Shown here one piece after another: positions 17,201-45,696 of a stretch of 64,000 bases of DNA. Source of the stretch: a virus (taxonomy: Duplodnaviria > Caudoviricetes). Numbering within the stretch: the stretch's first letter is position 1; each line of letters starts with the position of its first letter. The position numbers were made by a program, and so were the translations under genes. The notes under the pieces were generated by a model, which saw only the letters and a list, made by a program, of their open reading frames with translations, did no database searches and had not been told where the DNA came from. The stretch is from positions 1-64,000 of the IMG/VR virus record IMGVR_UViG_3300028888_000053, one strand, 5' to 3'.

Positions 17201-19294
17201 ATTTTGAATCATCTATTTATCTTGCTCATTCGAAAGCTATTTCATCATTTCTTCAAGCAACTACACAATCTAAGTTCTTTTTTGCTCATCTACAAAAGGA
17301 TTTTCAATTGCTTGAATAATCAGAGCTTCTTGATCTTGATTTAAATTAGAAAACATAGCATCTAAATTACTTAAAAACTATATTTCATTTTCATTTAATA
17401 TTGGAACCATAGAGATTCCAATATTTTTGTCATTAACAAAAGTACTAATACCAGAACTATTGTTAGATTGAGTAGCAATAATTTTATACTAACGTTCTAA
17501 TTCAGTATCTTTATTTAACGTAATATATAATGTTGAAGCATTTTCAATATGAATATTGTATTTATCCAAGACTCTAAATCTAGAATCATATGAACTTCTT
17601 TCTAAACCTATATTTAATGAATTAATCAAATCGTGAGTTTGTACTTGTAATGACCCATGTTTAGAAATATTTTCAGTAATAGCCTATCCACCTTCATATT
17701 TAGTTCTAGCATATACTGCCGGTTGATTTCTATCAAAAATACCATAAATCACATCTTGCAATAAGTATTTTCCAGTCGGAGTAAGTCCCTACTATATACT
17801 CTCATCTTCTATACTTTTAATGGACTATGATTTTATTCGCTATATATCTCTAGGCTATTTAGATATTAATTGCGCATAAATAGAATATAAAACATCTAAA
17901 TCAGACTCACTTAATAGCCCTCCTTGTACAGATAATAATTTTGTCTATAAAGAAGAATTGGCTCTATCAAATAATAACTAAAATATAATTGGAATGTATT
18001 TATTTAAATTATCATGAGCTAATAAGACATCTTGTTTAAATACCGTTTCTTCTTCTTGTTGTGTTACTAGTTTACACGTTGTCTAAACTAAATTACCCCA
18101 TGCGCTAGATATTGCAGTCTAATCAATTTTACTTTCTAATTGCGTGCCATTTTTTCTATCGTATAATATTAGAGAGCCAATTAAAACTTTTTCAAATTTC
18201 GTTGTTAACTTAATAGCATCTCTAATTTCTCCAGCTCTCCAATCTTTTACTGCAGAACTAGTGTCTTTTCCAATTGCATATTTGATTAGTTCCTATTTCC
18301 CATCTGATGAATACTAAGAAGGCTCTTGTGGTAATGTATGATCTATTTGAATAATATCACCAAATTCTTGTTCTATAGTTTCATCAAAATGACTTACATT
18401 TAAATATGCATATATAGCCTCTAGTCTTTCATTAAGTATACCATCCGCTAAATACTATTCAAGTGCAATATCTAATGATATTTCTGCCTATGATGTTCTG
18501 ATATACTATCTGAATTTCTATAATAGAGAATCAATATATGTTTGTTTTACTTTACCATTAGCATCTCTATACGAACGCTCAACTGTGAAATTTTTATCAA
18601 TATATTTTTTAATAAAATTTCCAAGCAATCTATACTAACTATTTTTATATGCGGCAATAGAAGCATTTAAGCTTGCGTTATCTGTTACAATAATATCTTG
18701 CTGTGTAAGATCTTTAATGAGTTCTAATGCTTCATTTTTTTGTTCTCTAGAGAATTGTAATTGTTCGCTACTAGCTAATTTTTGCCAACAATCTTGAATA
18801 TACGCACTAGCATCATCATAATCTTTTTCTGGAGGCATTAATTTTTGTAACCTTTCATATTTATTCTAAAGAGACTCCGTATAAAAATTATGTCTAATAA
18901 TTAAAGATTTAAAGATACGTCTACGAAATATATTTAATCTATATACTTCTAATAAAGCATTCCCAGAAAATAATTCCATATAATCGTCATCTAAATCTAG
19001 AATTTCAGATTCTTGATTTTCAGCTTCATTCTATGCTGATACTAGATCAGAAATCATTGATTTTATTTCATTAATTGAATGGTTTTGGGCCCATGTTGCA
19101 TGAGCCCTAATATTTTCTAAAGATGTTATTCCATCTTCACTTTCAAACCATTCCTATAATAATCTTAATTTATCATCCTGTCTTCCGATCTATTCAAGAA
19201 TTTTATTTGTAACTTTTTCTAATGAATCATATTCAGACCCATTTTCATATATTCCCGTTACATCGTCGAATTTTAAAGTAATTTGACAAGCCAT
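8237..19294 (-). CDS. Virion-packaged single-chain RNA polymerase of crAss-like phages (3685 aa, TAG=Gln)
   Basis: Twelve track ORFs share this frame. Catalytic GSDYDIDK at 11321-11344, preceded by ARIPAQSLQ(TAG)SYM. Beta-like EDADDGSAWINP at about 15000-15030. Starts MACQITL, ends RIDCHGV-TAA. Confidence 0.9.
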
Positions 19295-19295
19295 A

Positions 19296-22200
19296 TTAAT
19301 CACAATTTGTAATAATTAAATTATTCCAAGAGTCTTCGAATCGATCTCTATTATCTTCATTATCATCTAACACTGCCATGAGTAAGTTACTATATTCTGC
19401 ATATATTGTTTCATGAGTTACGCCTTCTCCAAATTTAAGCTTACCATTTTCTTCTATTATAACTTCTTGATCTTTAAAATAATTTACAATAAATTGTTGA
19501 ATATAATCATCATTTGCCATATACTGTTGTAATCTAGCTAATAACTAATCCTCTTCGTTATTACCTGTATCTACAATTGTAACATTATTAGAACCAGGAT
19601 TATAAGAAATTGATTTATTGCCATCACTAATGATTATATTATTAAAATTCTATGTATAAGTTAAATTTTCTGATTTAAGATCATAATTTTGTATAATGAA
19701 CTAAATCATATTTGGAATTTGTTCAAATGATTTATTTTGCAAATATGAGACTTGTTCTGATATTGATAAACGCTTAAATCTTTCATCGTTATCAATTACC
19801 GCATTTCCAGTCGCAGCACTAGAAGCTTCTTGAGCTCCCTATACTTCAGACTATGTTTTATGAAATTTAAAAGTAAATCTAGGCATATCTACTGCCGTTC
19901 TAACAAGAAATAACGGATTCATTGAAGACTGACATTCTGCAAATAGTCCAAAATTTTCTACATTTACACCATTCTAAAAGCCTTGAATTTCAGCTTGTGG
20001 ATCTATAAAAAATCCATTCGGGAAATAAGCATCGCTAGATTGTGGCTCTACTTTACTATTATATTTTTGGCCATTACTAACTTTGGTTTGTAGTTTTCCA
20101 TATAACTTACTATCAATTAAACCTTTTGTATTAGATGTCCCATGGAAACATAAGTCAAGAACTTTAGGGATTAATCCACCATATTTTTCTATAATATCTC
20201 TTACCTATAAAACATGCGTTGCTAATAATGTAGCTTTCTCCGAATCTTGAGAATGATCATATTCTTTAATTTTAATAACAGACGACATGTTCCAATCCCA
20301 TTCTCTAGCTGGTTTATCACCACGTGCTTGTAAGAAACCATTTTCATCAAGTTTGCTATAAGCCATAGCTCTGCTAGCTATTTTTACTAATATCATAGGG
20401 ATAAATTTAGTTAATCTTGTATCCTATGCGCTATCAGTATTACCATGAACAATACTAAATGCAGATGTGTTTCCACTAATTTCATTTAAAGATTTAAGAA
20501 TTGAATGATCTTTTATATTAACACGTACGTCCTATGGTATAATGCTATTATCTCTATTATCGCGTATTTGTATTCCCAATGGATCCGTAAAGCTATGGTA
20601 AATATCATCGATAATATCGATCATCTACTATAATCCTTTTGTATTGGTACAAATAAAATTAATAGCATTTCTATATGATTGATTTTTCTTTGCTTTTTGA
20701 GCAATCCTAATCTATTCTGGCATATATGTTAAACCAGGTTCTACATCATACATGCGAATTTGCCAATTATTATCATTTCCTACACCCAATCTAAATTGTT
20801 TAATTCTATTTTGATCACAATTGTCATTAATTTCCCATATCTATTCGCACAAAGATATATTATCTGGCTACTATTTTTTTACATAATTTCTAAATCCATT
20901 TTCTGTTGGATTTTCAGTAGTTTCTGAATACTCCTAATACTGTTTATGTAAATATTGTAAAGTAGTATCTATATCTGTATCTGATAGATTATAATGTTTT
21001 TTCCATTTATTTAGATAATCAGAGAATAATAATAAATTTGCCCTGAAATTGTGTAATGCTATTAATTGTCTTTGACCCATATAATCATTTTCAAAGGGAA
21101 GTTTATTGTATTTTGCACCTCCCATACTAGCTTTAGTTCTGAAAATTTCATCATAATCATTATTACATAGATCTGATAATGTACAACCAGCATTATCTAA
21201 TATAATCATACGAACACTTCTATTTGAAGTGACAGATTTTCTTTCACTTAACCATGTCTGTAAAAGTGTGTTTGAATCTAATGCCATATTTCTAGATACA
21301 AAAATAACCGCTTTACCACGAATGCTTTGCATCCCACTATTTTCATCATCAGATTGTGTATACTTATAAATATATACTGGAGATATTCTTAGATATGGAT
21401 TTTTACGTCTAAAATTAGTCTATTTTTGTAATAATTTATCGTCTTTTTCAAATGAATCTAATCGCATTTGTGCAACTTGTTCAAATGGTATAATAGTATT
21501 ACCATTTTCATCAGTTTCTTTTAACCATAGAGCATTTTGTATAGTTCTCAATACGGTATTTCCATTGAAAGTAACATCCCCTATCTCTAATGAAACTTCA
21601 TCGCTATTTTGATCAGATCTATTTTCAAATGCAGCCCTAGCTTCGTCTAAATTTCGTTTATATGAAGTTTTGACAGTTTCGAAATTATTAATAAAATTTT
21701 GTAATTTAGAAATTATATTTTGTGCAAGAGGATTCGAGCTGCTTTCTAGTTTTTTAATTCTATGATTTATTGCTTGTAATATTTCCTGTTTTCTCAAATC
21801 GAAATTATCAGGATTCTAAAGTTGGCCTAAAGTTACACGAGCCTATTCGCCATTTTTTGTAGTAAATTCTACTACAATTCTATATACTAGAGCATCGTGA
21901 TTTCCATCACCGTTAATAGCAGCCTTAGATAGCAATAGATCAGAATATCCTACAAACGAGTGTTTATTTTTATCTAACTTAGATACAACTAATTTATACT
22001 TTTTATTTTTAAGTATATTTTTTATTTCTTCTTGTGAAACAACATCTTCTAGTCCACTAGTTGCATAAGCTGATTGGAATTGATCCGATTCAGGATATAT
22101 ATTATACAATAATATACTCTTAAAAACAAGTAATGAATTAACTAATTTATCTTTTGTGATTCCATCATTAATTTTTGAGCTTTTTTGCAACATCTATGGA

Positions 22201-28875: not shown

Positions 28876-30792
28876 TTAATTATTTAATAAACTTGCAGAT
28901 CCTTCTGTAAAGCCTGTGCTACGTCTAAAATCGCCAATATTATACATTTCCTATAATGCATCTTGAATAGACACCTTTGTATTTGTTCCTGCACCAATTT
29001 TTGTTTGCGCAAGATTCTATGTAACAGGAATAAAAATTGTGCCTTTATAAAGTCTGTCAAAATTCTAACCCCAATCAAATGGATTTAAAATAGAATAATC
29101 ATCCCAATCATATTTGTAATCTTTGCCAGATTCTGCATCTTTATGAAATACTGCATTAAGAAAAACATCTTTGTATGTATCTTCTTCTGAACCCGAAATT
29201 CTCTATGCCATATCGGTCGTGATAATTTTGCTAGTAGATAATCCATTAAGACATAAATATGGTTCGAATTTTGAAGTATCTGGAAGTCCAGAATAAGGAT
29301 CAATTAAACCTTCTTCTTTCATTTTCTGTATTACTTCTTTACTATCCATGCCTTTTACATTGATTAAATCTATTAGTTCTTTATGCTTAGACATAAAATC
29401 TAAATCCGGTACGATTTTTCCACTAGATTCGTCACGAGTAATAGGTAATATAACTCTAGTAGCCTATCTATCATTCATAAACGCGACATCTTTAAAATCT
29501 TCTGGATTGAGAACCTAGTCTTCAAATGTTATAGCATAATCACCACCCTTGGTGACGCTATTATATCCATAATCCATAAGAAACTGTAAGCTACCATTTC
29601 CAGTTATTCTATGTGAAGGATCATACGATAAATTGGGATAATTTTGTCCATTAATCTAGTAAACATTGCCATTACGATCTTTTAATGTATATCTAGTATT
29701 ATTTGCGCCTTGCGCTGTAGAAATATTAGTAAACAAATCTGCATACTCTTCTGTGGAACTTCCAGAACCAGACCCGCTTTTTGATCCTAATTTTTTCCCA
29801 TTTATATCAAATTTTAGTATCTCATCTTTATGGTCAGTTTTCGAATGTTGTTGAGTTAATCTACTCATTATAATATTCATAGCACCTTCATCAGTTCCAT
29901 CACTATGATATTTTAATAAAGTTTTAGCATTTTCCGGTAATTGCTAATAAATGTACTTTAAAGCAGATCTAATTTGTGTAATATTATCTTTTTCAAGATG
30001 TGATACATTATATAAACCATCGATACCAGCCTCAGAAACAAAATCATCCTGTTGTGAAGCTTGCTATAACTATGCAACACCATTTAAAACTGTTTGTGCT
30101 TTTCTTTTTTCATAAGTACTAGTTTTTGTTTCATAAGTACCCAAAGAACCTATATACTATGAAATCAATTTATCAATTTCAGGCTAACTTGTAGCATTAG
30201 ATAATGCTGTAATGTATGTACTATCCATTGGATTCGCTTGCGCCCTTAATTGTAAAATTTCAGAGTTTCTTATTGGTGTATAACCAGCATAATCTTCAGA
30301 ATTCTATTTATAATCCTCAACAGATACATACTGTACTTGTCTATTTTCATCAAAAAACATAAGTTTGCCATCTGGTGAAATTGCGACTTCATTTAATGCT
30401 TGTTTCTTATTTATATCCTCAAATGCCTTATCATATCTTTCTTTATAATACTTTGCATTTTTAATTTCAGCAAGAGTAGTAAAATAGTATGTCGCTAATG
30501 TAGATGAATTTGCCATACCTGGAATAGAAGCAATCTAAGACAGCTACGTCAACTATTGTGTAATATGAGCAAGATCACTAGGAAGACCATCCATCTTTTC
30601 TGCCATCTAGATAATATCTTTCATGGTAAGATCATCCTTATCAGAACTTGAACTAGACTTAGATGAACTGCCAGAAGAGCTGGACTCATAAGATCCAGCT
30701 CTCTATCTTGCAGTGCCACTATTCACCATTACTGGCTAATATACGGTATATGGTGGCATAAAACCACCCTATTGCATAATTTGTAATTTCAT
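28876..30792 (-). CDS. Virion/ejection protein (638 aa, TAG=Gln)
   Basis: Starts MKLQIMQQGGFMPPYTVYQP, joins ORFs 29203, 29656 and 30304, ends SLLNN-TAA one nucleotide before the next ATG. Confidence 0.8.
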
Positions 30793-30794
30793 AA

Positions 30795-33700
30795 TTATTT
30801 TAATATACTTCTTATTGATAACAGCTAAGCTTTTGATAATCTATCAAGAGCTTTTGAGTTTTCTCTTAGTCCAGCAATGATTTGTTTAATTAAACGATCA
30901 TTGTCTTTGCTTCTCTTCTTAACTTGAGTATCATCAAGAGTGCCACCTTTCTTAGCTGCACGTGCTTGATTATTTTCATAATGACTAATATCAACGCCTT
31001 TATTTTTAAGATACTCTAATGTATATTTCCAAGTAGCAGCCTATTGTGCATCTTGATATTGATATTGAGCCTAGTATAATTCTGGCCAGGTCACTCCTGT
31101 TCTGTGAGATACATCAAGCCAATTTTGTCTTGCACTTCTAACAGTTTCATCATTAGCTATCTAATGTGCTAACCATGCTTCTTCAGCTTTATCTTGATAT
31201 CTTTCACGCTTGTCTCTCAAGTCATCCATTCTCTATCTCAGACGAGATTCATTAGCCATAAGGTAATTGTTAATAGAATCCATATTAGATCTAATTTTAC
31301 CCATATGAGCCTTGATTTCTTGATTATATAATTCATGTAAAGCGGCATTATTGAAGTCAGCTACTCCTAAATTATATTTATCTACTTCTCTATCTACAGC
31401 CCATTGTTTTTCAGCTGTATCTCTAAGAATTTGATCAGATTTTAATTGACCTTCACGAGTTATATTCTAACCTTTATATTGAGCTTCTTGGGCTATAGCT
31501 TCATTAATTGAAGCATCAGAAGTTTTAGCCTAACCAGCATTTGCCAATAATTGATTAGCTTGTTGATTAGCTGCCTATTCAATATCAAAACCAGTATAGA
31601 CATTTCGATGAGCAACCATAGGATTCTTTAATGGAGTTCTAAGTTGCTTTGCAAGATCATACATTTTACTATTGCCACGAAGATTTGCCATTAGTCTTGC
31701 AATATCCAAAATCTCTGGTCTGAAGTCTGGGAAATTTTTAATCCATTCTTTCCATTTATCACTTCTTCCAGGAATTCCACTTATTACACCAGAACCAACA
31801 CCTATTTTTTGCGGTTGTTGTTTAGCTCCTTCTTGTGGTGTGCCTTGTTGCCCTGGTTTTTCTCCTTCTGTAGCAGGAGCAGGAGCTTGTTCTGTCTGAG
31901 AAGTTTGTGGCTGTGCTGGATTTTCTAATCCAAGATCTTGTATATCTTGTGGACTTAAAATTGCTATGTCACCATTTGCTTTTTTGTAAACCCATCCAAG
32001 ATCTCCAATCTTATGGACTCGTTTTTTTTTCTCTTCAGGAGTTAATTCCTCAAACTCTTTTTCGTACTAATCCATTCTTCGCTTCCATGTACTAGTACCC
32101 ATCCAGCTTTCTATATCGTCGTCTTGATAACCAATATTATATGCTCTATTTGTATCATTAGTTTCTGTTTGACTTCTATTTGCAAACATTTGTTTAAATA
32201 ACCTATTATGGTCTAATGCAACTTCAGGTGTATTTGCAATATACTTTGTTGGATTATCTTGCTAACCATAATGCCAAAAACCTCTAATTTTAGCTGCGTT
32301 TTGATTGTATCCGGCAACATATTCTTCAAGAGATTTGCCATTATACGCATCATTATAATACGTATTTAAATCTCGTCCAACTAAATCCTAATTGTTAGTA
32401 TAAGCTGTATTAAAAGCTTCTGGACTAGCTAAGTTCCAAATACTTTGTATTTCTTCGTCGGTCTTTCCTCTATTATGTGCATTTAACAACTTATCATTAG
32501 CATACTATTTTCTTTCATATTGATCAGGAAATCCTCTTAAGACTAGTTGTGGATATCGCATTGTATACCAAGTTTCTTTTGCAGGAGTTATTCTTTCTAA
32601 TGTAGTACCTGGTTTCGCTTTAACAATTCCTCCATTTTTTTTGAGTGCTAAAAGACGTTCTAATTTACCACCTTGTCTTTCTGTAGGAGTAGCTCCTTCT
32701 ATTGGTTCTGCAGGAGTTCCTGCAGCAGGAGTTTCAGTAGTAGCTGGTTTGGTTTTTGGCTTTGTTGTTTTTGGTTTTGATTGTCTTGTTATTTTAAGAT
32801 TTTCTATAAAATTATTAAAATATGATTCTTGCTCAGAAATACGTTCCGGTGAGAAACCTAGACTTTTCTGTTTCGCGATCTCCAATTTAAATAGCTTATC
32901 AATAGCATCTTTTTGAGATTGATTTGTAACTTTGTTGGTAATTGCATTTGATGGCTATGTTAAACTTTGCACTAATTCAAATTTTCCATCTGCTGTTTTA
33001 ACTACCCATTTATAATTTGGTGTTACTTTTCCATTTTCTAACTAGAATACTATAATATCTTTAGGAGATTCTACATTTGTTCCTTTATTAATATTTAAAA
33101 ATTCATTAGCATCAGGAGCATTCGGGTTTAATTTATGATATCTATTAACATTTTCTTGCTAAATATCTGTCATTCTGCCGCGCGCAGCCGCCGCTCTTGC
33201 TTGTTCGTATAAGCCTCCTGGTTTTAGATATTCTTTCATAAATGTTTTATCATCAATAAAATTATCCCATGATCTAGTAGTCGTTGTTTCAAATGGACTT
33301 TGTTCAAAATGCCATCTCTATGGACGTGTCCGTGTAAATGCCGTTCTTGGCATATATTGTTTTTGAACTTCTAATGTAGCAGGATCAAATCCCTCAACCT
33401 GACTTGGATGAGATTGAGCCCATTGTCTCAATGCTTCATTTTGAGATTCTATTGTAGAAGCAGACTAAATATTTTTGATTAAAGTATCATCGACCCCTTG
33501 AATTTGCCCAGATTTACCAGATCCATCTTTGACATTTAAGTTTGTTGTTTCTGTACTTTTAATATTATTGCGACGAATTCCTTCACCTTTCAATCCCAAG
33601 CCGATATTTGCAACAGCATGTAATCCACGCAATAACTATACCATTTCATCCTTAGTAAGATCTGGTAAAGAGCCTGCACGATTAATTAATAACTTTCCTG

Positions 33701-35744
33701 CAGACACAACCTCTGGAACTGAAGAAGCCATCATATAACGACCTAACCATTTTAACTATGGCGCGAATCTTGTAGCCGTATTGATAAGGTGTTTATCTTT
33801 GAATTTCTTACCAAGAATAGGAATACCAGCAATAAATGCGGTTCCTAAATTTAATCCAGCATATTTCAACGCTTCAGACTTTGAGACATATGGGTCCCAT
33901 AAGTCGTTTCCAAGTCCAGTTCCAGAACTAAGAGCACTTAAAGCCCATCCAGCGGCTGGATATTTATACATAGCAAGAGCTCCTGTTAAACCAAGCGCAG
34001 CTTCTGCCATTCTAGAATAATCATCATAAGTAAGTTTTTGCGCACCAGCTTCAAGAGCTTCATCCGACCTGATATTCTATTCTCTAATAAAATTAAAAGG
34101 TAAAAATGGACTTTTTTCAGTTTCACTCTACTTATATTGATATTTTTCTGGCTCTATAGGTAACGTGTTCCCTCGTAACTCTGCTATTCTCTATGCTGCA
34201 TCTTTATTGTTCCATGGTTTTTTAGGGGTTTGTTGTTTAGTCGTTATTTGACCGGATTTTTGAAATTTCTGTATATTTGTTAAAATGCCACCAATTTGAT
34301 TTTTAGGAACATACTTAAATTTATTTCTGTTATAAAAATCTTTTCGCATTTTTTCAAGAAGTTTTGTGTGCTATTCTGGATCTATACGTACTTTTGATAA
34401 AGTGCCTTTTGTAGTATTAAATTTAGTTATAATACCAGTTTTAGGATCAAAAGAAGCATTAATTAAATATTCATTCTCATTTAGTTTAGTAAATTCATCA
34501 TTCTGCTAATCATTAAATTGGTCAACCATTAAATATAAGAATTGTGAAAATTCTTTAGATAGATTTGGCCTTAAATTTAACAGTTGTGAATTTTGGAACA
34601 TCTTTTCAAAGTTCGTTAAATCTAGTATATCATGATATTTATTATTGAAATCATTCCATTTTTTCTAAAATTCCTCTGGAGTCCAGCCTTTAATTTCTTT
34701 ATAATCAGGATCCGATAACGTATAAACAGTTTTTTCATAGAAAGGAGTATTGAATATCCTATTCTACTCTTCATTCCACTTCTAAAGATTCTCCTAATTC
34801 TTAAGCTAATCTCTTGTTGATTGTAATGACTATTGCATTTGAGCCTTGTATACATCTATGGCGTCCATTTGTCCCATCCATTCTGGATGAGCTTCTAACC
34901 ACCTATCAAAGTATAAATCCTGAACATCTTTTGGATCCATATCCTATAACCTCTATGACTATTCACTTTCTCCACTAATATTAGTAACATCAAAAAGTTT
35001 TCTATTTCCAGCCATTCCTAGATTATTGAAAATACTCTTCAAAGTATTTTGTTCTGTTTCACCATATTCAGGGCCAATAGTATTAAGGTCCTGAATAGCT
35101 TTGTCTAGTTTTGCAATATACGATTCCTTATTTTTATGAATTCCCCAGTCGTAATCTGTTGTTGATTCATTTAAATAATCCCTGTATTTTGGTAAATATT
35201 CTTTAAGCCATGCTAGACGATTAGTATTACTACGAACTTTTCTGTTATTTGGATCTATATCATCCTACTATTGCCAATCTAATTTCATCTGACTGGTTAA
35301 TTTATCACCTCCAAAAATAGTCTAAGCAAAGTATTTTCCAAATTCAGAATCGGCATTAAACTTAGTTTTTGCTTTTTCTTCTTCCTTTTCAGTCGTAGTA
35401 GTATTACGTTTTATAGGAGTCATCTAATTATAAATCTACTTAGTAAAATTAATTGCATACCCAATAAAACGATCATCAGAAATACCATTGCCATACCAAC
35501 GAGTATCTTTATCTTGATGAAGACTACCATCAGCGACAGCCTATTTAACTGCAGTATAAGCAGCCATAGCATGTTCTCTATCTTTGCGACGAGTAAACTG
35601 ATTTAAGAATACTTCTTCATTATGTGGATTATCAAGATTTGCTAATAATCTTTCAGCGTCGTAATTACCATACTATGTTCTTACTTGTAATTCAGGTTCA
35701 TCGGCAGTACCGCCACTTGCTAATTTCTTTATATATTGTGCCAT
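30795..35744 (-). CDS. Large virion/ejection (cargo) protein (1649 aa, TAG=Gln) with putative membrane segments and P/A/T-rich linkers
   Basis: Starts MAQYIKKLASGG, joins ORFs 32505 and 33756, ends IRSILK-TAA. Gly/Ala hydrophobic stretch at 33780-34010; several xxGG motifs. Confidence 0.8.
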
Positions 35745-35756
35745 ATGTCATATATT

Positions 35757-35789
35757 AAAAAAGGAGGTATAAAATAATTTACACCTCCT
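35757..35789 (-). terminator. Intrinsic terminator-like hairpin
   Basis: Minus strand AGGAGGTGTAAA-TTAT-TTTATACCTCCT followed by a T tract, just upstream of the ATG at 35744. Confidence 0.7.
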
Positions 35790-35818
35790 CCACCTTAAAA
35801 CATTATAAGTTAATCTAA

Positions 35819-36136
35819 TTATTTTCTAATACGATATGCGATTTTCCCACCTGCACGATAAACGGGTTCACCTTGAGGCTCTTCCTGAGGAGCTCTACCA
35901 CCCTGTTGTGCTTCCTGAATAAGCTGAATAAACATGTTGCATACCTCCATGGCACTCTGACAATCATTATTTTGAATTGCTTGCATAGCTAATTGTGCCA
36001 TAACCATCATTGGATCTTGCTCTTGAGGAGCTGCTTCTTGAGGCTGTCCAACTGGTACTTCTTCTTCCATGGGCTCTTCAGCGGGAATTTGTCCGCCTTC
36101 CTAAAGATAATTAATTTTACGTAATTTAAGTTTCAT
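35819..36136 (-). CDS. Small Q/P/E-rich virion-associated protein (105 aa, TAG=Gln)
   Basis: Extends the track ORF through one TAG: MKLKLRKINYLQEGGQIP...PVYRAGGKIAYRIRK-TAA. Confidence 0.8.
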
Positions 36137-36199
36137 GTTTTTAATATATTTTTAACGTTAATAAATATGTTGAATTTTCTGTAATTATTAAGATACACA

Positions 36200-36228
36200 A
36201 TTATAATATATTGAATGTATTAATTCAA
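36200..36228 (-). promoter_or_regulatory. Putative promoter TTGAAT-N17-TATAAT
   Basis: Minus strand TTGAAT taatacattcaatatat TATAAT in an intergenic gap. The same architecture recurs at 49714 and 61907. Confidence 0.6.
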
Positions 36229-36251
36229 ATTTCTTTCTTAAAACCTGAAAA

Positions 36252-37589
36252 TTAGCCATTATCCTTATTGTTATCAAGACTAACATACTCAGCATCACGA
36301 GAATCTTGAGCATCTAATTCCTTGAATACATACTTACCTAAAGACCTACAATAATTATCAAACTTCTCGTTTTTTCTATTCTTATAAGCCTTCTTTGCTT
36401 TACGGATAATAACTCGTGTAGATGTTCTACTAAATATTCTCTGGCCAGATTTTAATTCATATTGTGATTGTCCGTCACTACCAAGAACAGACATTACATA
36501 TTCATCATCATCTCCTGGTAAATCCAAATCATCACCAGGTTGAACATCTGCATCTTTATCTAATTCTACAACAAACATTACATTGTCTTCATGAACTAAT
36601 GTTTCGTTCATTGGTTCGATTCGTTTTACAGAGATACATTCTTCATCATCATCAAAGAATGCTATAGTTAAAGGAATTAATGTATCTTTACCCCAGTAGT
36701 CAACCGATTGAGGACGATCGTAATAGAAGATCATACCTTCATTAGGTTCTAATTCTTTAATTCCCTGTAATCCTTTTTCTTTTTCTTCTGGTGTTTTGGC
36801 TTCCCATAAATGATATTCCTTACCACCAATTTGAGCTGCAATTTGATTCTCTTTCAATTCGCTTGTAGGTACTTCTTCTGGCTCTTTAACTTCATCACCT
36901 TCAGCATCTTTTTTGATACCACCAGCTTCTACTGGTAAGTTCTTTGTAAAATAGAATTTACCTTTAAAGAATCTGCCATCACCTTTCATAGTATGGACTA
37001 CATTCTTTCCACTAATATCATTCTTATCCAAATCATTAGGTAAGATTACAATTTCACCAGAGATAGCTTCTCTAACTTTGCGTTCAGGATTAATTTTATT
37101 ACCAGCTTCATCAAATTCAATATCACCACCATTTTTAAACAACTGCATTCCGTGAAATGCTTTTTCAATATGATCATCGTCCATTAAAGCGAATAATTTC
37201 TTTAAAGATGATCCTTGTTTCTGTTTTTCTTCACGGATCTTTTTAATGTCATCTTTAGTGTATTTCTTATCAATAGAAATCATGCCAAGAATATCTTTCA
37301 TCATATCAACGAAACTATCCTCCTCATAAGCCTTTTCTGGACCACCTAAAGATATAATAACTTCAGTTTCACCACCAAATAAATCAGCCAACTTTTCTGG
37401 TTTATAATCCCTTAAGATATGCTTAGGATGACCAAGAGATTCCATAATAGCACATAACAGACATTCGAGATCATCTTGTTCGACTTCTTGTTTATCATCG
37501 ATTTCTGTTTCACGTCTTGTCGTAGGCTCTAATCTCTCTTCTACCTCTTCGTTATATTCACTAATCAAGTCTTTAAATGTCTTACTCAT
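36252..37589 (-). CDS. DUF192-domain protein with long acidic N-terminal extension (445 aa)
   Basis: EAKTPEEKEKGLQGIKELEPNEGMIFYY...YWGKDTLIPLTIAFFD...VVEL matches the DUF192 pattern. No internal TAG. Confidence 0.8.
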   Translation of the reverse strand: MSKTFKDLISEYNEEVEERLEPTTRRETEIDDKQEVEQDDLECLLCAIMESLGHPKHILRDYKPEKLADLFGGETEVIISLGGPEKAYEEDSFVDMMKDILGMISIDKKYTKDDIKKIREEKQKQGSSLKKLFALMDDDHIEKAFHGMQLFKNGGDIEFDEAGNKINPERKVREAISGEIVILPNDLDKNDISGKNVVHTMKGDGRFFKGKFYFTKNLPVEAGGIKKDAEGDEVKEPEEVPTSELKENQIAAQIGGKEYHLWEAKTPEEKEKGLQGIKELEPNEGMIFYYDRPQSVDYWGKDTLIPLTIAFFDDDEECISVKRIEPMNETLVHEDNVMFVVELDKDADVQPGDDLDLPGDDDEYVMSVLGSDGQSQYELKSGQRIFSRTSTRVIIRKAKKAYKNRKNEKFDNYCRSLGKYVFKELDAQDSRDAEYVSLDNNKDNG

Positions 37590-38679
37590 CGTCTTTAGAT
37601 TTTAATTTAGTCATATCTATAACAAATCTTCCATCAATATCTCCATTTAACATACGTTCATATGCTTTATTAATGGCCTCTGGAGTTGGTTCTAACTCTT
37701 CAACTTCTGGGTATATATCGTTTCTAATGCTAAATTTAGCACATAGCTCAGTTTCAGGAATACCACCAATCTGAGATCCCCAGATCTTAACTCCAGGATA
37801 ATTCAATATCATATCTTTAATATTAACATTTATGTCTTTACACTCTTCATATGGAGGTAGTCCAACAATAGCAAAATCACCATTATATTTCATTAATGGC
37901 AAATAAGTGTTCAAATCATATTGATATGGAATTGTCGAAATAATAAAGTCAAAAGATTTAGTCAAGTCTTCATCAGTATGAAATTTATCATCAACCTGTA
38001 CAAATTTAATACCTAATTCTTTTGCAAAATCAGCTTTATCTTCTTTATCAAAAGCAGTAATATCACAGCCTAATGCTTTTAGATATTTAACTGCCATATG
38101 ACCAAGACCTCCTAATCCTAAGACTCCACAAACACTATCTTCTGAAACATTAGCTTGATGAATGGGAGAGAATGTTGTAATGCCAGCACACATTAAAGAA
38201 GGACATTTCTTTAAGTCAGCGTTTTCTGGAATTTTAATTCCAAAATTCTCATTTAATACATATAAATTAGAATAACCTCCTTGTGTGATTTCATTATCAT
38301 GTCTCCAGTCTTTTGATGCGTATGTTAAAACTACATGTTTGCAATCTTGTTCTCTTTTATTTCTACATGCTGGACAATTCATGCAGCTATCAACCATACA
38401 GCCGACTCCACAGTAATCTCCAACTTTAAATCTTGTAACCTAAGAGCCAACTTCTTTTACTCTGCCTAAAATTTCATGACCAGGAATCAAAGGGAAATTT
38501 TCAACATTACCCCAGTGATTTTTAACAGTATGTAAATCACTGTGACAAATTCCAGCATAAAGTATTTCAATTAAGATATCGTATTCATCAAGAGGTCTTC
38601 GGGTAAAATGTATTTCTTTAAATTTATCAGCTGATTTTTCTATACCAAATCCAACTGCCTTTATTCGTTCTTTATTCAT
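37582..38679 (-). CDS. Zn-dependent NAD(P) alcohol dehydrogenase/aldehyde reductase, cinnamyl-ADH (YahK/AdhC-like) MDR family (365 aa, one TAG=Gln)
   Basis: GICHSDLH, PGHEILG, GVGCMVDSCMNCPAC...C (structural Zn), LMCAGIT, GLGGLGHMAVK and GRFVID. Two track ORFs join across the TAG at 38440. Confidence 0.92.
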
Positions 38680-38681
38680 AA

Positions 38682-38868
38682 TTATTTATAATTCATTATA
38701 TAATTTACGCAATTCTATATCGCTTCCTTATAATTATCTGGGTATTCATCAATTTCGTGTTTATCATAATTCATTTAAACAAAAATATTTTAACAATAAA
38801 GGAATAGCTTTATAATGTTTATTTTTGAAAATTTCAGTAATTAGTGATTGACATAATATATTATTCAC
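38682..38868 (-). other. Two overlapping tiny ORFs (34 aa and 30 aa), or one frameshifted ~60-aa gene
   Basis: GTG38868 (GTGA overlap with the upstream stop) VNNILCQS...YFCLNEL-TGA38764. ATG38774 MNYDKHEID...YIMNYK-TAA38682, 2 nt before the ADH ATG. Confidence 0.35.
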
Positions 38869-40094
38869 ACTTTTATTTCTTTTAACAATCCAGTTCTGTC
38901 ATCAGTATTCTCTATAATATCAATTGCTAATAATTCACCAGCTTTTCTAGCAATTTCGTCTTTATCCTTCTGTGTTTCTGCTTCATGATACTATTTACGC
39001 AACTCTTCGATTTCATCTGTTAATTCTTTATTTAAGATGATTTCATTAAGCTCAATTTCTGCTTGCTATTCACCTGATTCAGAAGATACAACAGGTATTC
39101 CTTTATGAGTAATCTCTCCCTTTAATTCTGGATTAACCTCTTCGAGATTGTGTTTTCTTGCATGTAATGCTCCTTCTGGAATAAGGTTCATCTAACCTCC
39201 ATTCTAGAATTTATCCACATCTCCTACTAACTAAATGTCAAGTCCAGAAAAATCGGGTTCTGCTTGATGCTAAGATCTATAAGCAACTCTATGTGCAATC
39301 TAAAAAGCTTTAAGATTACTTAAAATACCACCTTTTTTTGCCGCGTGAATTGCTCCTTGATCGTAACCACCATTCATTAAGTTCATGTATTCTTGATTAT
39401 TCATATCTTGTTGCTATGCTAATGATTGTAATCGCATTTGATTATAATCCATAATTGTATTTAATTCGTTTTGTGTTCTACCAGCATCTGAAATTAATTC
39501 ATTGGCTCTTCTTCTTTGTTTAGAAGACCAAGCACCATATTTGCCAATCCTACCCATGGCACTATTAAAATCCCCTTCAGATCCATTATAAGAATTTCCA
39601 GCTAATGCCCAAGTTCTATAATCTCTATCAATAGAAATAGTCTTTTTACCTCCAAATCCATTGATAAGACCTATATTCCAGTTAAAGAAATTAGAACCTA
39701 AGATAGCATCTTTTCTGGTTTTTCCATCAGTTCCACCACCTAATCTACCAAGCCCTTTTCCGAGTAATTCCATACCCTTCATTGCTCCTCCTGCTATCTA
39801 TCCCCAACCTGGAATATTCATAAGTGTATCACTGACTTTATCATAAGCAGCATCCATACCAGCGGTGATGTTTCCATATTCACCATCGTATTCATTCTTT
39901 GGTTTTATAAAAGCGCCAGCAAAATCAGCTGCTTGACCTACTGCTGAAGCCCAACCTCCGGCCGCCTAAGTTTTGGGACCAGAGGTAGACAACGCAGAGA
40001 AAAAGCTACCAGCATTGGAGGCAAAAGGCATGCCTCCTCCGCCAGTTCCATATGTGGGGCCACTAATGACACCACTACCAATATTTCCATTCAT
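38865..40094 (-). CDS. Gly-rich virion cargo/internal protein (409 aa, TAG=Gln)
   Basis: Starts MNGNIGSG, contains track ORF 39414, AAKKGG and KFQNGGQMNLIPEGALHARK...QAEIELNEII, ends KEIKV-TGA. Directly follows the muzzle gene, as in crAss-like phages. Confidence 0.75.
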
Positions 40095-40095
40095 A

Positions 40096-43000
40096 TTATG
40101 AATAACTATTAGTATATAAAGTTAATATTCCAGAAATAACAGCTAAGTCCTCACCAGAATATCTAACCTTAATTCGTAAATATTTATCTTTTATTCTCAT
40201 CTCATGTCTTCCAGCATCCCATTTATCAAATGTAATGTCATTACCAGTATAATTTAACTACAATCTAGTATTCAATGGATCAATATTTAGTTCTTCTGGG
40301 AAGTCCTTAATATCTTCTGGTACTGGATTATTACCTAAAGCAAGTTTTAACTTCGGGTTATTATCATCTAAATGTGAGTTAAGATATTCATTCTTCTACA
40401 CATAATTAATAGAAGGAATCTATACATACCAAATATCTTCTTTATAATGCATATTACCTCTTAATCTACCATTCTTTGTAATATCAACACCCTAGACATG
40501 ATTGCAAATCTTAAATTCATTTAATAACTGATCATATATAATTTCACCGCCTGATAAATTCTGATATTCATAACCATTAGCGGTTAGAGCCTAATATGAA
40601 TCATATATCTTATTGTAATTCCCCTTTCTACTATAATAAAGTGGGAACATTGTTGATTTAAATACCTCTACAGGTACTACATCTTTAAAGTTCTTATTGT
40701 ATTTTATATTAGAACCCATACATATTTGATAGAATGCCTTTGTTAACTCCTATCTATAATACATATTAGGTTTATCACTAATTTGTTCTTTGAATGATCC
40801 TGGTGGCATTTTAATGTGATCAAGATCATAGCACTATCCAATTACTTCATAATGGAATGATTCTGGAGCTGCTTTATTAGAAATAATCCTCAAATCATTA
40901 AATATCTTGTGATTTATAGGATTATTATTTACTACAAACTCAAATTCAAATGGATGTTGTTCTCCATACCATTTAGTTGGTAATATTCTTTCCATATCTG
41001 GTACAAAGTCAGACTAACCATGTTTCCATAAATAAGTAAACCTTGTATCATCTACATCATCGATAATCTTCTTATCCGTTTCATGATTAAACGTGATAAA
41101 ATTATTACCAATATTACCAGAGAATGAAGGAATCCATGAATAGAAAGTCTACCATCCATTACCAGAATGAGCCGAGTTTAAATTATAACAAATATTCCAC
41201 ATTACATCTTCATTATAATCCCTGCCTACAACATCTACATTGTTGTAATCGTAAGCAGTGAACATTACATCATTTTTAAATGCATTGTAATGTGATTTAA
41301 TATTTGTTTTATTTAACTCTAATTCTTTATTCCACATTGATAATCCTTTATTCAAGAAGGACTATATTCTAAAGTCAGATATCAATTGGAATCCATGTGT
41401 AGTACCATTTGTATACCAAATTTTCTTTGCTACGGCATCTACTCCAAATACTCCATAAGGAGTTTGAATAATACTTTCAGGCCAAGTAGAACCATAAGTA
41501 TCAGAAATGATTACAGAATTTTCTGGTAACACATTTGGACTATTAATGAAGACTAATCCATTATTACCATTACCAGCCTATACTCTTTCTTTTACTGCTA
41601 ATGCTAAAATACCATGTTCGCAAACAACTAATAAGTCTCCACTTAATGTAAGTATTTTAACAATAGCTCCATATTGATCTGTATAATCTCTAAAATGAGT
41701 TGCAAGGAATGTTCTGTTGCCATTTTCAAAAGATCCATTAACCATTATATTAGAATAGGTAATTCTATTCTTATAATATGAATTATCAAAAATGGTATTA
41801 TTCTAATTCCAATACTATCTATCACTTCCAGATTTACTAAATGCAGAATTATAATTATCGGATTCTGGCATTTTGTATGAACCAGATGCGTCAACAGAGT
41901 GCAATGGATAGAACGATCTACTATTTCCACTCTAATGTTTCTCGTCAGTCCAAGATTCATCTGTACTTCTAATAGAAATATTCATTGATGAACGCACTGG
42001 GAAAGTAACCCAACTACCCATCTAAACAGCATTCAAGTCGCCAACATTGATTTTTAAAGCTGCTTTTGCGCCTGCTGGATCTGAAGAACCACTAGAATCA
42101 TTACCAGTAGAAGCTTCTATTCTTCGATATTCAACATCAAATATATCTTTACTAAATAATGATTCTACACTAGATGGGGATAATATCTCATCATTATAAG
42201 GCGCTGTTGCGTCGTTGAAATTTCTATTTACTCTATGGGTGAACCAGCCTATAAAGCAATCTCCTCTATATAATGAATCTGTTTCTACTAGATTAGTAGA
42301 CATTTCCATTCTATCACTAATAGCATAGTATTCAGATTTGTCATGATATCTTAATTCTCTATACTATTCAAACTAATCCGTAGAATAATTAGGAATATAT
42401 ATATTTACTATTCTATTAGCAAAATCTTTTACTGCGCGTTTCTTTGTATCACCTTCTGTATTATATACATATTCCTCAATTGGATAACAACCTAAATAAG
42501 GACCATATTTTCCACGTAATACATTAAATGGTACGTGCTAATTTAACATATAAATTCTATCATCCCGATTAATGGTAGTTTGATATGTGTTAGGCTTACT
42601 TATATCAATTTTGGCCGATTTTTCATCAGGAAAAACATATCCTAAGAATTTAGCTCCAGCAAATCTAAATGTAAAATCTTTATCACTACCACATTTCGTA
42701 GAGAAGTAAGCCGCTTCATTATGACGAAGATAAGATTTGCCAACTTCAACTGGATTGTTCATTCCTAAATTGATAGAACAAATAGTAATATCCTCTTCAA
42801 CTCCTAAAATCTTTGTAGTATATGTCTTGTTTTGAGTTTTTTCTAATTCTTGATTTTCGTATGTATATCTTCTAGAATTTTCACTTGTATTCAAGAAGGC
42901 TTCAGTTGTAGCGAATTTCGCAACTAAGTTACCACCAGTGAAAAAGTTGTTGTAATGTGCTTTGTATAAATCATATTCTGGACAAAATGCAGCATAAGAA

Positions 43001-45696
43001 TTAAATTCCATTGGATGAAAATACAAAGAATATTCATCGCTATCTTCATATGATTTTGGATATTCATATTTACCATCATACGTAGAAATGTCTTCTTTAT
43101 TATCATATACAGTTTCTTCAATAATTCCAGTATCATTTGGATCAACAACTATTTCTCGAATATAAGTAAAATGAAAATCTTTATAACTAGATGGAGTATA
43201 TTCTTTGTTAATACACTTATTAATAAACTATGTCAAAATATTTATTACATTTGACTGATTTTGTGCATTCTATCCATAACCTTCAGCATCAACTCGGTAT
43301 GTAATACCATTAAATTTAACATAACGGCACACTGGAGTATAATCTTTTAATGTTTTATTAACATTATCAAATCCTTTATCATACCAGTACTTTTGATATA
43401 ATCCTTCTCTTACATTTGTAACTCTAGTAGGTTCTTTACCTCCACTAGCAAAATCAATTGGGACATAGCCCTATGCTGTAAACTTCTAATTTTCAGTTGG
43501 AGAACATTCTTTTGCAACATAATTACTTCCAATACTATCTAGTTCAGCAGCTTCTTCACTACTTATTTTAGTGGCGAATAAAGCATAACACCAAAAATGA
43601 CGATCGTTATCGTAATTTAATGTATTTACATTATTAGCAAAAATACCAATAAAATCACTATCCTCCTTTTGCCATACTCGATAACCGGAGTACCAAAATT
43701 CTTTGTTATTACGTATAGACTGTCCATATTCTTTAACAAAGGCATTATAAGATACATTACCTAATACTTTTTTGTCTCTATAAATACGAGTGTGATCAGT
43801 TAAAGAGAATAATCTACGACTGTAAGCATTAAATAGCCTAGGTTTGTTTTCGTGCGAAATATTTTTAGGATAAAAAGCAGAATCAATGTCATTTGGTAAT
43901 TCATAAAAACTACCACCCATAAAAGATTCATACAAGTATCTTGCTTCACCATTAATGTCAGACTATAAATTAATGCTAGGAACATAAGCATCTTCACATA
44001 CATTAGTAGTATAAGCCTATGCTAAAAGAGTTGGAATTCTCTTCTGTCTTACAAAGAAGTAACCTTTATAGTTTTCTTGAATATAAGTATTCTACAAAGC
44101 TTCGATATTGAACTTAATACCAACAACAGTCATCTAATCCCAATCAGTTCCTTGATTAATTCTTGAAACACCAAATATATTGCAATGCTGATCTGATAAA
44201 GAAGATTCGTTATTATAATCAATTTGAGATTGAGAAACAAGTTTTATTGCTTTTAAAGTATCTTGGCTAGTTTTTTCTGTCAATTCATTAACACCTAATA
44301 CATCAAAGACACTCGTTAATGAATTATCTTGTCTTATATAAACAATACCAAATCTATAGAACTCTCCAATATGATAACCAGTAGATTCGTAACAGAACTT
44401 AGAATTATAATACGAATTCTATTCTTCACCTTCATCGTATTCATAGCTAGAACTTAAATTAACTCTTTTACTGGCATCCAACATTGGATACACCTAAAGA
44501 CTAATAGTTCTCAATTCATCATACTCATTATCATTTTTGTAATTCTCAGCTATATTACCCTAAAACAACATGTTCTATGTTAAACACTATGTTTTAACTG
44601 TATCTGCATTGAAATATCTTATATTAAGATCAGTAATTGCCATTGCTACTTCATCCTCAAAACCTGTAAAGATAATGTGAATAATACTATTTCCACCATC
44701 TTTTGTTACAGGGAATAATGTCTATACTTTATAAGCTAAAGTACTTGCATTCTAATTATTAGCAGCAGCAGTTCTAGTGTAACATAACTTTACGTAATGA
44801 TATGCACTATCTATATTTGTAATCGTTAAGTCTATTGATTTGTCTGATACTTGATTTTCAGATCCTCCATTTACACTAAAAGGATCTCCATCTGTTCCTA
44901 AAAATACAGGAATTACACCAGATTCACATATAATATCAGATTCATTGCCATCTTTGTCACACGCGATGACATATATTGTATATGTTCCTACTTTTAACTA
45001 ACCACCAGTTTGTAATCCATTAAACTGTATTTTAGGAATCTTATGAGAATCTCTATACAACGAAGTTTGCAAATTGAATAAAGTTTTATCATCTAATCGA
45101 TATCTATTAGTATGAACTGAATCATCACCAATTCTATCAATTATATAATATTCTCCATTTTCTCTTGCCTAGAAACCAGTGTTAATTAATTTAGGATTAT
45201 TTTTATTATCAGTAAAGATTAGATTTACCGAACCATCATAAGAATCCTCTGCTAACACTTCTACTGGATGATTTAAATCAAAATTAAAATATTCAGATCT
45301 TAAATCATACAATGAACCATTTTCAGTAATTCCAATCTTTAATGGGCTATATTTATAAATTAGTTTTCCTTTTTTGGCATCCCAATCAGGACTAGGGAAA
45401 CACCCAACTTCTCCTAATCCTCTTTCTTTACTATATGATATAATATACATGATATTACCGAATACTTTCAATCCGATTGGAACAAAAGTTTCGGTTAAGC
45501 ATGCATATGATGTTTCACCATTGTCTAAGTGATATGGAATTCTAACATTTCCCATATCATTCTATAGAATCTACTCATTACCGTTAAAGGTACTAATTGT
45601 AGCATTCAAAGCATTCGATAAGACATTTTTAGGTGTTGTGGCTATATTGCTGTCAAGAATTAATCCACCTTCAAACGTGTTTTGCGTAGTTTCCAT
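40096..45696 (-). CDS. Tail muzzle/stabilisation protein, crAss type (1866 aa, TAG=Gln)
   Basis: N-terminus NTFEGGL...ALNATISTFNGNEQILQNDMGN, internal GYHIGEFYRFGIVY, C-terminus KDKYLRIKVRYSGEDLAVI...SYS-TAA. ORFs 41149, 42022, 42538, 43486 and 45169 are in frame. Confidence 0.85.

Follow-up and report, generated by a model that had tools for sequence, protein, structure and literature searches.

What is a gene for a zinc-dependent alcohol dehydrogenase (ADH) doing among the virion-protein genes of a tailed phage? The question is raised by a gene at 37582..38679 of IMG/VR record IMGVR_UViG_3300028888_000053 (Duplodnaviria; Caudoviricetes), of which we analysed positions 1 to 64,000 (the window). 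These 64 kb begin a single contig of 212,277 bp with 31.5% GC, and their source is a large (212-kb) gut crAss-like phage. We find that the gene apparently encodes a complete enzyme, that it has long resided in the phage, and that it is better described as an accessory partner of the adjoining gene, which encodes a DUF192-family protein, than as a lone metabolic insert. Whether this partnership also takes the ADH into the phage particle is weighed below. Unless otherwise stated, coordinates are window positions, and all protein-coding genes with their codons and motifs are on the minus strand.

A complete zinc alcohol dehydrogenase read through one TAG codon

The ADH coding sequence (37582..38679) comprises 365 codons, from an ATG at 38679 to a TAA at 37584..37582, and its end overlaps the start of the DUF192 gene by 8 nucleotides (nt; 37589..37582, ATGAGTAA). 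Its only in-frame stop is a TAG at codon 80 (38442..38440; context GS-TAG-VTRFKVGD), read here as Gln, at a position where homologues carry Q, N, K, G or S. Under translation table 11 the frame is split into two pieces of 79 and 271 amino acids (aa), and full-length ADH therefore needs TAG to be read as sense. This agrees with an initial reading of the window from its letters alone (hereafter the sequence-only reading), which had proposed the same coordinates, single in-frame TAG, 8-nt overlap and requirement for recoding. Its statement that the gene is already carrying a recoded TAG is accurate in that one TAG is present, but is overstated, as this is only 1 of 7 Gln codons.

The protein contains both domains of the medium-chain dehydrogenase/reductase (MDR) superfamily, ADH_N (PF08240, 4.2e-23) and ADH_zinc_N (PF00107, 5.5e-15). 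The closest solved structure is 3TWO (1.6e-91), with ADH residues 5-358 aligned to 3TWO residues 2-345, followed in the structure library by plant cinnamyl-alcohol dehydrogenase (CAD)-type enzymes and E. coli YahK (1UUF, 3.2e-70). Alignment to 3TWO identifies the catalytic zinc ligands as Cys45 (in GICHSD, 38545..38547), H68 (38476-38478) and C164 (38188-38190), and the structural-zinc lobe as C99, C102, C105 and C113 (38341..38385). The dinucleotide-binding GxGxxG motif is G188-L-G-G-L-G193 (38101..38118), and the strand that follows it ends in Asp211 (38047-38049). The seven zinc ligands, the GxGxxG glycines and D211 are invariant in an alignment of 23 homologues (52-85% identity) of the class that we term phage-type, a label that we assigned from search rank, fusions and lack of a signal. 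The sequence-only claim that all catalytic and structural zinc ligands and the GxGxxG motif are present is borne out by both alignments. With both domains, both zinc sites and the nucleotide-binding motif in place, the ADH is apparently an intact enzyme capable of catalysis, a zinc alcohol/aldehyde oxidoreductase from the cinnamyl-ADH/YahK branch of the MDR superfamily.

D211 aligns to Ala in 3TWO and is also invariant among the bacterial relatives aligned. In MDR enzymes an acidic residue at this position favours NAD(H), and Asp211 suggests that the phage enzyme would use NAD(H) rather than NADP(H). Against NCBIfam NF047908, the equivalog model for NADPH-dependent aldehyde reductases of the Ahr/YahK type, the ADH scored 219.5 bits, below the 470-bit cut-off; enzymes of that type have small or basic residues behind strand B, where the 2'-phosphate is accommodated. 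Because of this score and D211, we place the ADH in the CAD/YahK branch and not as an Ahr/YahK equivalog, and Asp211 also argues against NADPH-type chemistry as in YahK/Ahr. The earlier assignment to a cinnamyl-ADH/YahK type thus stands for the branch, on the Pfam, 3TWO and YahK matches, but not for the equivalog. Aldehyde detoxification or redox balance, the role suggested at that time, is only one possibility among others.

A long-standing phage gene under purifying selection

The gene is neither chimeric nor recent in the phage. We regard a chimeric assembly, or a bacterial contaminant joined to the phage contig, as refuted. The composition of the ADH gene (GC 31.9%; GC at third codon positions, GC3, 17.5%) matches that of the genome and is similar to that of its neighbours, its in-frame TAG fits the phage code, and its end overlaps a phage gene by 8 nt. 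The stretch is also represented in contigs from three other studies, with identities mostly of 95-99%; one of these, an independent 79-kb contig from run X4, is colinear over 35700-38680 (p105, DUF192 and ADH), and those of the two further studies are short. The only indels listed are at 35950-35957 and 38855-38858, with none listed inside ADH or DUF192 in X3, X4 and X8. IMG/VR contigs of 139-197 kb have this gene too, in the corresponding block. Eight contig pieces from the RNA-library run X2 match the window letter for letter, at the TAG codon and the ADH/DUF192 junction as well, and may be carried-over DNA; as DNA can be present in such libraries, we discounted these contigs as proof of transcription.

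Selection on the gene is strongly purifying. Among a sample of strain differences (the 40 best-supported of 260), the 14 shown inside ADH comprise 12 synonymous and 2 conservative changes (R73K, T82K), and those shown in the DUF192 gene comprise 17 synonymous and 5 non-synonymous changes. The ratio of non-synonymous to synonymous substitution rates (dN/dS) for the ADH domains of the relatives L001-L005 was 0.015-0.062 in nine informative pairs (L003 being equal to L004). These values make it very improbable that the ADH fold is kept only as a structural or binding domain for which catalysis is irrelevant. Fusion of ADH to non-enzymatic modules in several lineages would fit such an exapted scaffold, but all zinc ligands, GxGxxG and D211 have stayed invariant over branches of 0.3-0.9 substitutions per site, and a dN/dS of 0.015-0.06 is likewise against it. 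Cellular origin, phage-adapted composition and purifying selection, the features expected of an auxiliary metabolic gene, are all found in the ADH. The tree described below, the dN/dS, the strain differences and GC/GC3 agree in this, and the sequence-only view of a domesticated gene can be retained, as neither the chimera nor the relaxed selection that would have told against it was found.

Pairing and fusion with a DUF192-family protein

The gene that overlaps the end of ADH encodes a DUF192-family protein of 445 aa without any TAG codon (36252..37589), which consists of a helical 'adaptor', a small beta domain, the DUF192 domain and conserved C-terminal helices. The adaptor region (residues ~39-155, CLLC ... 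MQLFKNGG; 37125..37475) is kept in family members with or without extra heads. The DUF192 domain (residues 264-347; 36549..36800) matched PF02643 at 4.9e-15, with 55.9 bits against a cut-off of 27, and the corresponding part of the predicted model matched the folds of 3PJY (template modelling score 0.79 on target) and 3M7A. A fold search with the DUF192-protein model (mean predicted local distance difference test score 66) returned only DUF192 structures, and nothing for the adaptor.

The DUF192 family, as represented by 39 matches, has a constant architecture of helical adaptor (CLLC ... MQLFKxGG), DUF192 domain and conserved C-terminal helices, preceded by a variable head, and these heads are swapped between members. 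One head is an NlpC/P60 domain (1.1e-16), which also matches tail and virion PHROGs, and family forms of ~740 aa have a weak match to an endolysin PHROG (8.3e-5). A cell-wall hydrolase as head is what would be expected of an ejected or virion-associated protein. PDB sequence searches with the heads of P0136 and P0137 gave nothing beyond DUF192, and PHROGs gave no match for the DUF192 protein of the window or for p409, p105, p1649, p638 and p200. By eye, unassigned domains such as ...YWELHGKP...FHS.SVA.NE.GEYEFMK... and ...HYETD.YYNG... occur both as heads of DUF192-family proteins (P0136-P0153) and as inserts in p409-like genes of the relatives L105 (5014-6960) and L108 (5770-7620); if this sharing holds, domains have been shuffled across the cargo-block genes.

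ADH is not only paired with DUF192 but, in other lineages, is also fused to it. Single ADH-DUF192 polypeptides of 546-587 aa form eight clusters in two subclades of the ADH tree (P0020-P0023 and P0025-P0027, with P0018 as unfused sister). A further extension of ~260 aa is attached to ADH in P0011, P0012, P0015, P0019 and the L001 lineage; as it occurs in the L001 lineage, this extension has homology (5e-14) with the head at the N-terminus of P0146, a DUF192 protein. The open reading frame (ORF) of ADH in L003, L004 and L005 ends at 399-413 aa, inside the C-terminal extension.

Position in the cargo block

In the window the gene order runs muzzle, p409, ADH, DUF192, p105, p1649, p638 and then giant proteins (down to 837). 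The muzzle is a crassvirus muzzle protein of 1866 aa (40096..45696; PF25731, 1.9e-19). ADH is the second gene after it and lies between the muzzle and the giant, putatively RNA-polymerase, genes, where a cargo protein would be expected. The sequence-only placement of ADH between cargo genes is well founded, in a block whose position is that of the virion cargo genes of crAss001. Mass spectrometry of crAss001 virions detected gp45, gp46, gp47, gp49 and gp50, the products of genes after the muzzle gene (gp44), and parts of gp45 were also resolved by cryo-electron microscopy (cryo-EM) (Bayfield et al. 2023, PMC10172136). The crAss001 block thus supplies proteins that travel in the particle and are ejected into the host.

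Among the IMG/VR relatives with ADH, L001, L002 and L003 were examined for gene order. All three are TAG-recoded and have the order muzzle, p409-like, DUF192, ADH, p105-like, p1649-like, p638-like. The same-locus check that had been suggested in the sequence-only reading therefore gives a positive result, with DUF192 and ADH exchanged. The ends of the two genes overlap in both gene orders. Four relatives without ADH, the standard-code MT835470 together with MT835492, L105 and L108 (all three with TAG read as Gln), have a short DUF192 protein (188-237 aa) in the same place. As these four ADH-less relatives keep DUF192, its residence in the block predates that of ADH, which joined it in one subclade as an accessory partner. 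L003 also has ~2.6 kb of extra DNA before its p105-like gene (L003-L005, 10001 to ~13870), as if an element had been inserted.

The position in a morphogenesis operon, the tight coupling to DUF192 and the conserved catalytic residues could also be accounted for if ADH and DUF192 worked inside the infected cell while particles are put together, say on a cofactor or one of the cargo proteins, and ADH was needed to build the particle but not ejected. We consider such an assembly-time helper improbable, as four relatives build the same block without ADH, which is therefore not essential for assembly, and as NlpC/P60-type heads point to the host envelope and not to the particle.

Cellular relatives and origin of the phage enzyme

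A protein search in which 8000 candidates were scored set apart the top 26 (P0002-P0027, 99-52% identity), and the remaining named members were mostly Bacteroidota. In a tree of 72 rows, built without P0014 and P0024 and with alternate rows of P0028-P0121, 25 phage-type rows were split from 47 bacterial-type rows by a branch with a support of 100 in the Shimodaira-Hasegawa-like approximate likelihood ratio test (SH-aLRT). The phylogeny that the sequence-only reading had called for thus separates the phage-type enzymes cleanly from bacterial ones.

The bacterial relatives are mostly signal-bearing. Scoring was possible for 69 of the 94 bacterial-type rows, and in 59 of the 69 there is a hydrophobic N-terminal extension, some of RRxFLK type or with a lipobox-like Cys, by a heuristic that is not a signal-peptide predictor; by the same scoring such an extension was found in 0 of 27 phage-type rows. 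An exported family of NAD(P)-type zinc ADHs, as the bacterial P0028-P0121 would represent, would be unusual in itself. No DUF192 match was found within 4 kb of ADH at any of 80 bacterial loci, searched with a phage-derived hidden Markov model of moderate sensitivity, and we rejected joint capture of ADH and DUF192 from bacteria on this result. A search of viral contigs with the single ADH protein gave no match. With an alignment as query the same search returned L001-L018, of which only L001-L005 are phage-type; L006-L018 have 33-44% identity, and some lie on giant-virus bins.

These relationships are compatible with a history in which the progenitor of a group of large crAss-like phages with recoded TAG would have captured ADH from a mostly signal-bearing bacterial family, whose named members are mostly Bacteroidota. 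The phage ADH, without a signal, would then have become the fixed partner of the DUF192 protein just downstream of the muzzle. In the window phage the two are translationally coupled with ADH first, and elsewhere their order is reversed or they form one polypeptide.

Is the enzyme packaged?

The proposal that follows is that the DUF192 module bears interchangeable enzymatic 'heads', with ADH as one of several and cell-wall hydrolases among the others, and that ADH may be made late, enter the particle together with the DUF192 protein or by way of it, and act at or just after ejection. The sequences themselves show an intact gene, its residence in the phage, purifying selection on it, its pairing and fusion with DUF192 and the swapping of heads in the DUF192 family; that the enzyme is active, which cofactor it uses, when and where it acts and whether it is packaged we infer, with late expression being suggested by position and the TAG codon. 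That ADH is a component of the ejected-protein (cargo) module, as a partner or covalent head of the DUF192 protein, is in our judgement the most likely of the readings considered, at about even odds. The more specific proposal, that the phage packs the enzyme and injects it with its DNA, using the DUF192 module as a delivery route and the ADH as an alternative 'warhead' to wall hydrolases, which would then act on an envelope or periplasmic alcohol or aldehyde at entry, perhaps with a tightly bound nicotinamide cofactor, is tentative and on balance unlikely.

Packaging gains indirect support from the ADH-DUF192 fusions, from the swappable heads that include a wall hydrolase, and from a junction motif in common with crAss001 gp45, a cargo protein verified by mass spectrometry. 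This motif, approximately [K/F]-[F/H/L]-[Q/K/A]-x-G-G-x-[I/M/V], is present at the N-termini of p105, p1649 and p638 (36136, 35744 and 30792), and its x-x-G-G core is also internal in p409 and in the DUF192 protein (residues 150-155), so that the motif region spans 28876-40094. The x-x-G-G motif is kept at equivalent positions in divergent orthologues (L001, L019, L020, L105 and L108), and crAss001 gp45 (L102, 7988-10516) has similar repeated aromatic-x-x-G-G motifs. Among extended phage-type ADHs, which are related sequences and not independent events, 13 of 15 have a G-G within 40 residues of the domain end, where ~0.25 per sequence would be expected from composition. The motif could be a cleavage site or a docking strand.

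A number of observations weigh against packaging. In the cargo block the motif pattern occurs at 5 sites, compared to 0.59 after shuffling, but the regular expression was written after seeing the data. By the criterion that we had ourselves defined, the window ADH has no junction motif and no extension, and ends 9 residues past the catalytic domain; packaging of this copy, if any, must therefore go through its partner. Packaging of the DUF192 protein itself is inferred from gene position and hydrolase heads. A folded zinc enzyme, probably oligomeric, would need unfolding to pass the tail. Direct phage context is available for the window and the L001-L005 lineage only, with eight more clusters placed by their fusion to the phage-type DUF192 module, and the phage-type label is, as stated, our own. 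Searches of viral contigs, metagenome contigs and by tblastn for the place in the genome that encodes the fused forms yielded DUF192 loci without ADH only. TAG makes up 2 of 37 Gln codons in ADH, DUF192 and p105 together, and 337 of 810 in the remaining genes of the cargo block (Fisher p = 2.7e-6). As this trio is TAG-poor and bracketed by a variable spacer and a terminator-like hairpin, it may be a sub-unit with its own expression regime, unlike true cargo genes. For ADH alone (1 of 7) the difference is not significant (p = 0.25), and in L001 the equivalent trio has TAG at 3 of 55 Gln codons versus 61 of 258 in the other cargo-block genes (p = 0.0015).

The spacer in question is the 185-nt strain-variable segment upstream of ADH (38680..38864). 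Here the X4 contig has 176 letters of different sequence, and its coordinates jump in a way that implies ~2.8 kb of extra DNA; the X3 and X8 contigs have loose ends at the same place, and the corresponding gap of the ADH-less L105 and L108 contains additional genes that bear the motif. The spacer looks like a hot spot for accessory cargo genes. The hairpin, of 14 pairs followed by a T run, lies directly after p105 (35760..35791, minus strand) and was identified by a consensus scan only.

Many of these observations would also be expected of an ordinary auxiliary metabolic gene that is not packaged, in which case the enzyme would be cytoplasmic, made late, and used for aldehyde reduction or NAD(H) rebalancing, and adjacency to DUF192 would reflect a shared insertion hot spot. 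The unadorned window ADH, the strain-variable insertion site upstream of it, the other accessory genes that fill the same gap in L105 and L108, the TAG-poor trio, and the ADH-superfamily genes known in other phages (phrog_2640; Synechococcus phage S-SM2) are all consistent with this explanation. A common insertion site, however, does not readily account for fusion to DUF192 in two subclades and, in a third, to a domain shared with DUF192-family heads, or for an adjacency that survives a flip in gene order with the gene ends overlapping in both orders. The nearest cellular relatives are in addition mostly signal-bearing and not cytoplasmic. We therefore hold an unpackaged metabolic gene to be a genuine possibility, of a standing well short of even, and lean towards membership of the cargo module only to the extent stated above.

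To our knowledge, the ejected proteins of tailed phages are known to make channels, cut the cell wall or transcribe DNA. If ADH is among them, an oxidoreductase would be a new class of phage-injected activity, which would suggest that on entry crAss-like phages condition the host envelope, or its redox state, by chemical means. If unpackaged, it still represents a metabolic gene that abundant gut phages have long kept within their cargo block, with strong purifying selection acting on it. In either case, fusion to ADH gives DUF192 its first functional partner, and the swappable-head DUF192 family together with the recurring G-G motif provides an entry point for studying the construction of crassvirus cargo proteins. 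In the literature searches neither ADH nor DUF192 was found to be described in crAss-like phages, nor an oxidoreductase head on an ejection protein, and neither ADH nor DUF192 terms occur in the main texts of PMC7886860, PMC12386605 and PMC11054128.

Genetic code and other features of the phage

Sequencing runs with matches to the stretch are mostly labelled as sheep or bovine gut metagenomes. The major capsid protein has 65% and 56% identity to those of two unannotated human-gut phage contigs, and 24% identity over half its length to that of a named Crassvirales member. In the minus-strand block at ~1-124 kb of the genome, giant ORFs are open only if TAG is sense, with TAG making up 30-60% of Gln codons; in the plus-strand half there is almost no in-frame TAG. 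When six late proteins were compared with those of the standard-code relative MT835470, TAG aligned to Q at 20 of 76 positions (26%; background 4%). A tRNA with anticodon CUA was found outside the window (genome 110815-110890, locus L103 216-291, minus strand), absent from default ARAGORN output, seen at a relaxed threshold and then confirmed with Rfam (38.7 bits, gathering score 29). This is likely to be the amber suppressor of the phage. The TAG-open giant ORFs, the alignment of TAG to Q, the tRNA(CUA) and the residues of homologues at ADH position 80 together lead us to read TAG as Gln in the late genes. A second odd tRNA, at genome 141380-141453, has an enlarged anticodon loop.

The first gene after the muzzle encodes p409 (38865..40094), which carries KFQNGGQMNLIPEGALH. 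Downstream of DUF192 lie p105 (35819..36136), a small conserved cargo-block protein with the N-terminal sequence NYLQEGG and the third member of the TAG-poor trio, and p1649 (30795..35744), a large cargo-block protein with the N-terminal sequence YIKKLASGG. One of the giant proteins, of 3688 aa (8237-19303), contains ...SDYDIDKA... / LQGSDYDIDKAY, a DxDxD-like motif, and on its sequence would fit the virion RNA polymerase of crAss-like phages; Pfam gave no family for it. A scan for sigma-70-type promoters found 19 sites against 23 expected, and one for TANNTTTG, which we take to be the Bacteroidetes-type promoter motif, found 107 sites against 97 expected, so that neither scan was informative.

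Comparison with known systems

As an enzyme, the phage ADH is most similar to the Helicobacter pylori CAD-type ADH 3TWO (deposited as 'mannitol dehydrogenase'), YahK (1UUF) and Ahr, with which it shares the two-domain zinc-MDR fold. The match to 3TWO and YahK is full-length and includes the Cys-His-Cys catalytic and four-Cys structural zinc sites. It is unlike 3TWO in having Asp at position 211 in place of Ala, and unlike all three in being encoded in a virion-gene block, with DUF192 as its neighbour or fusion partner. Among cellular enzymes it is closest to the signal-bearing bacterial ADHs, such as P0030, an NAD(P)-dependent alcohol dehydrogenase of Flavobacterium agrisoli, which have 46-52% identity and share the Asp at 211. 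These differ from the phage enzymes in their Sec-like, twin-arginine translocation (TAT)-like or lipoprotein-like N-termini and in having no DUF192 neighbour, and they lie on the other side of the branch with support 100. The genes of phrog_2640 and of Synechococcus phage S-SM2 belong to the same superfamily (1.8e-42), but have only ~24% identity to the phage ADH, and S-SM2 is a cyanophage and not crAss-like.

As a possible component of the particle, the DUF192 module can be compared with T7 gp16, whose transglycosylase domain makes it the textbook case of an ejected virion protein with an enzymatic domain. Ejection proteins of this type combine a constant virion-targeting part with an enzymatic part, and the DUF192 family is alike in this through its NlpC/P60 head. 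Known ejection-protein heads attack the cell wall or make RNA, in contrast to an oxidoreductase such as ADH. The closest positional parallel is provided by crAss001, where the genes of gp45 (C1) and gp46 (C2) come immediately after that of the muzzle and before those of the giant RNA-polymerase proteins (PMC10172136), an arrangement like that around the ADH. The crAss001 cargo proteins have no sequence homology to ADH and none is a metabolic enzyme. Their packaging has been proven by mass spectrometry and cryo-EM (PMC10172136), whereas the ADH is no more than a candidate for packaging.

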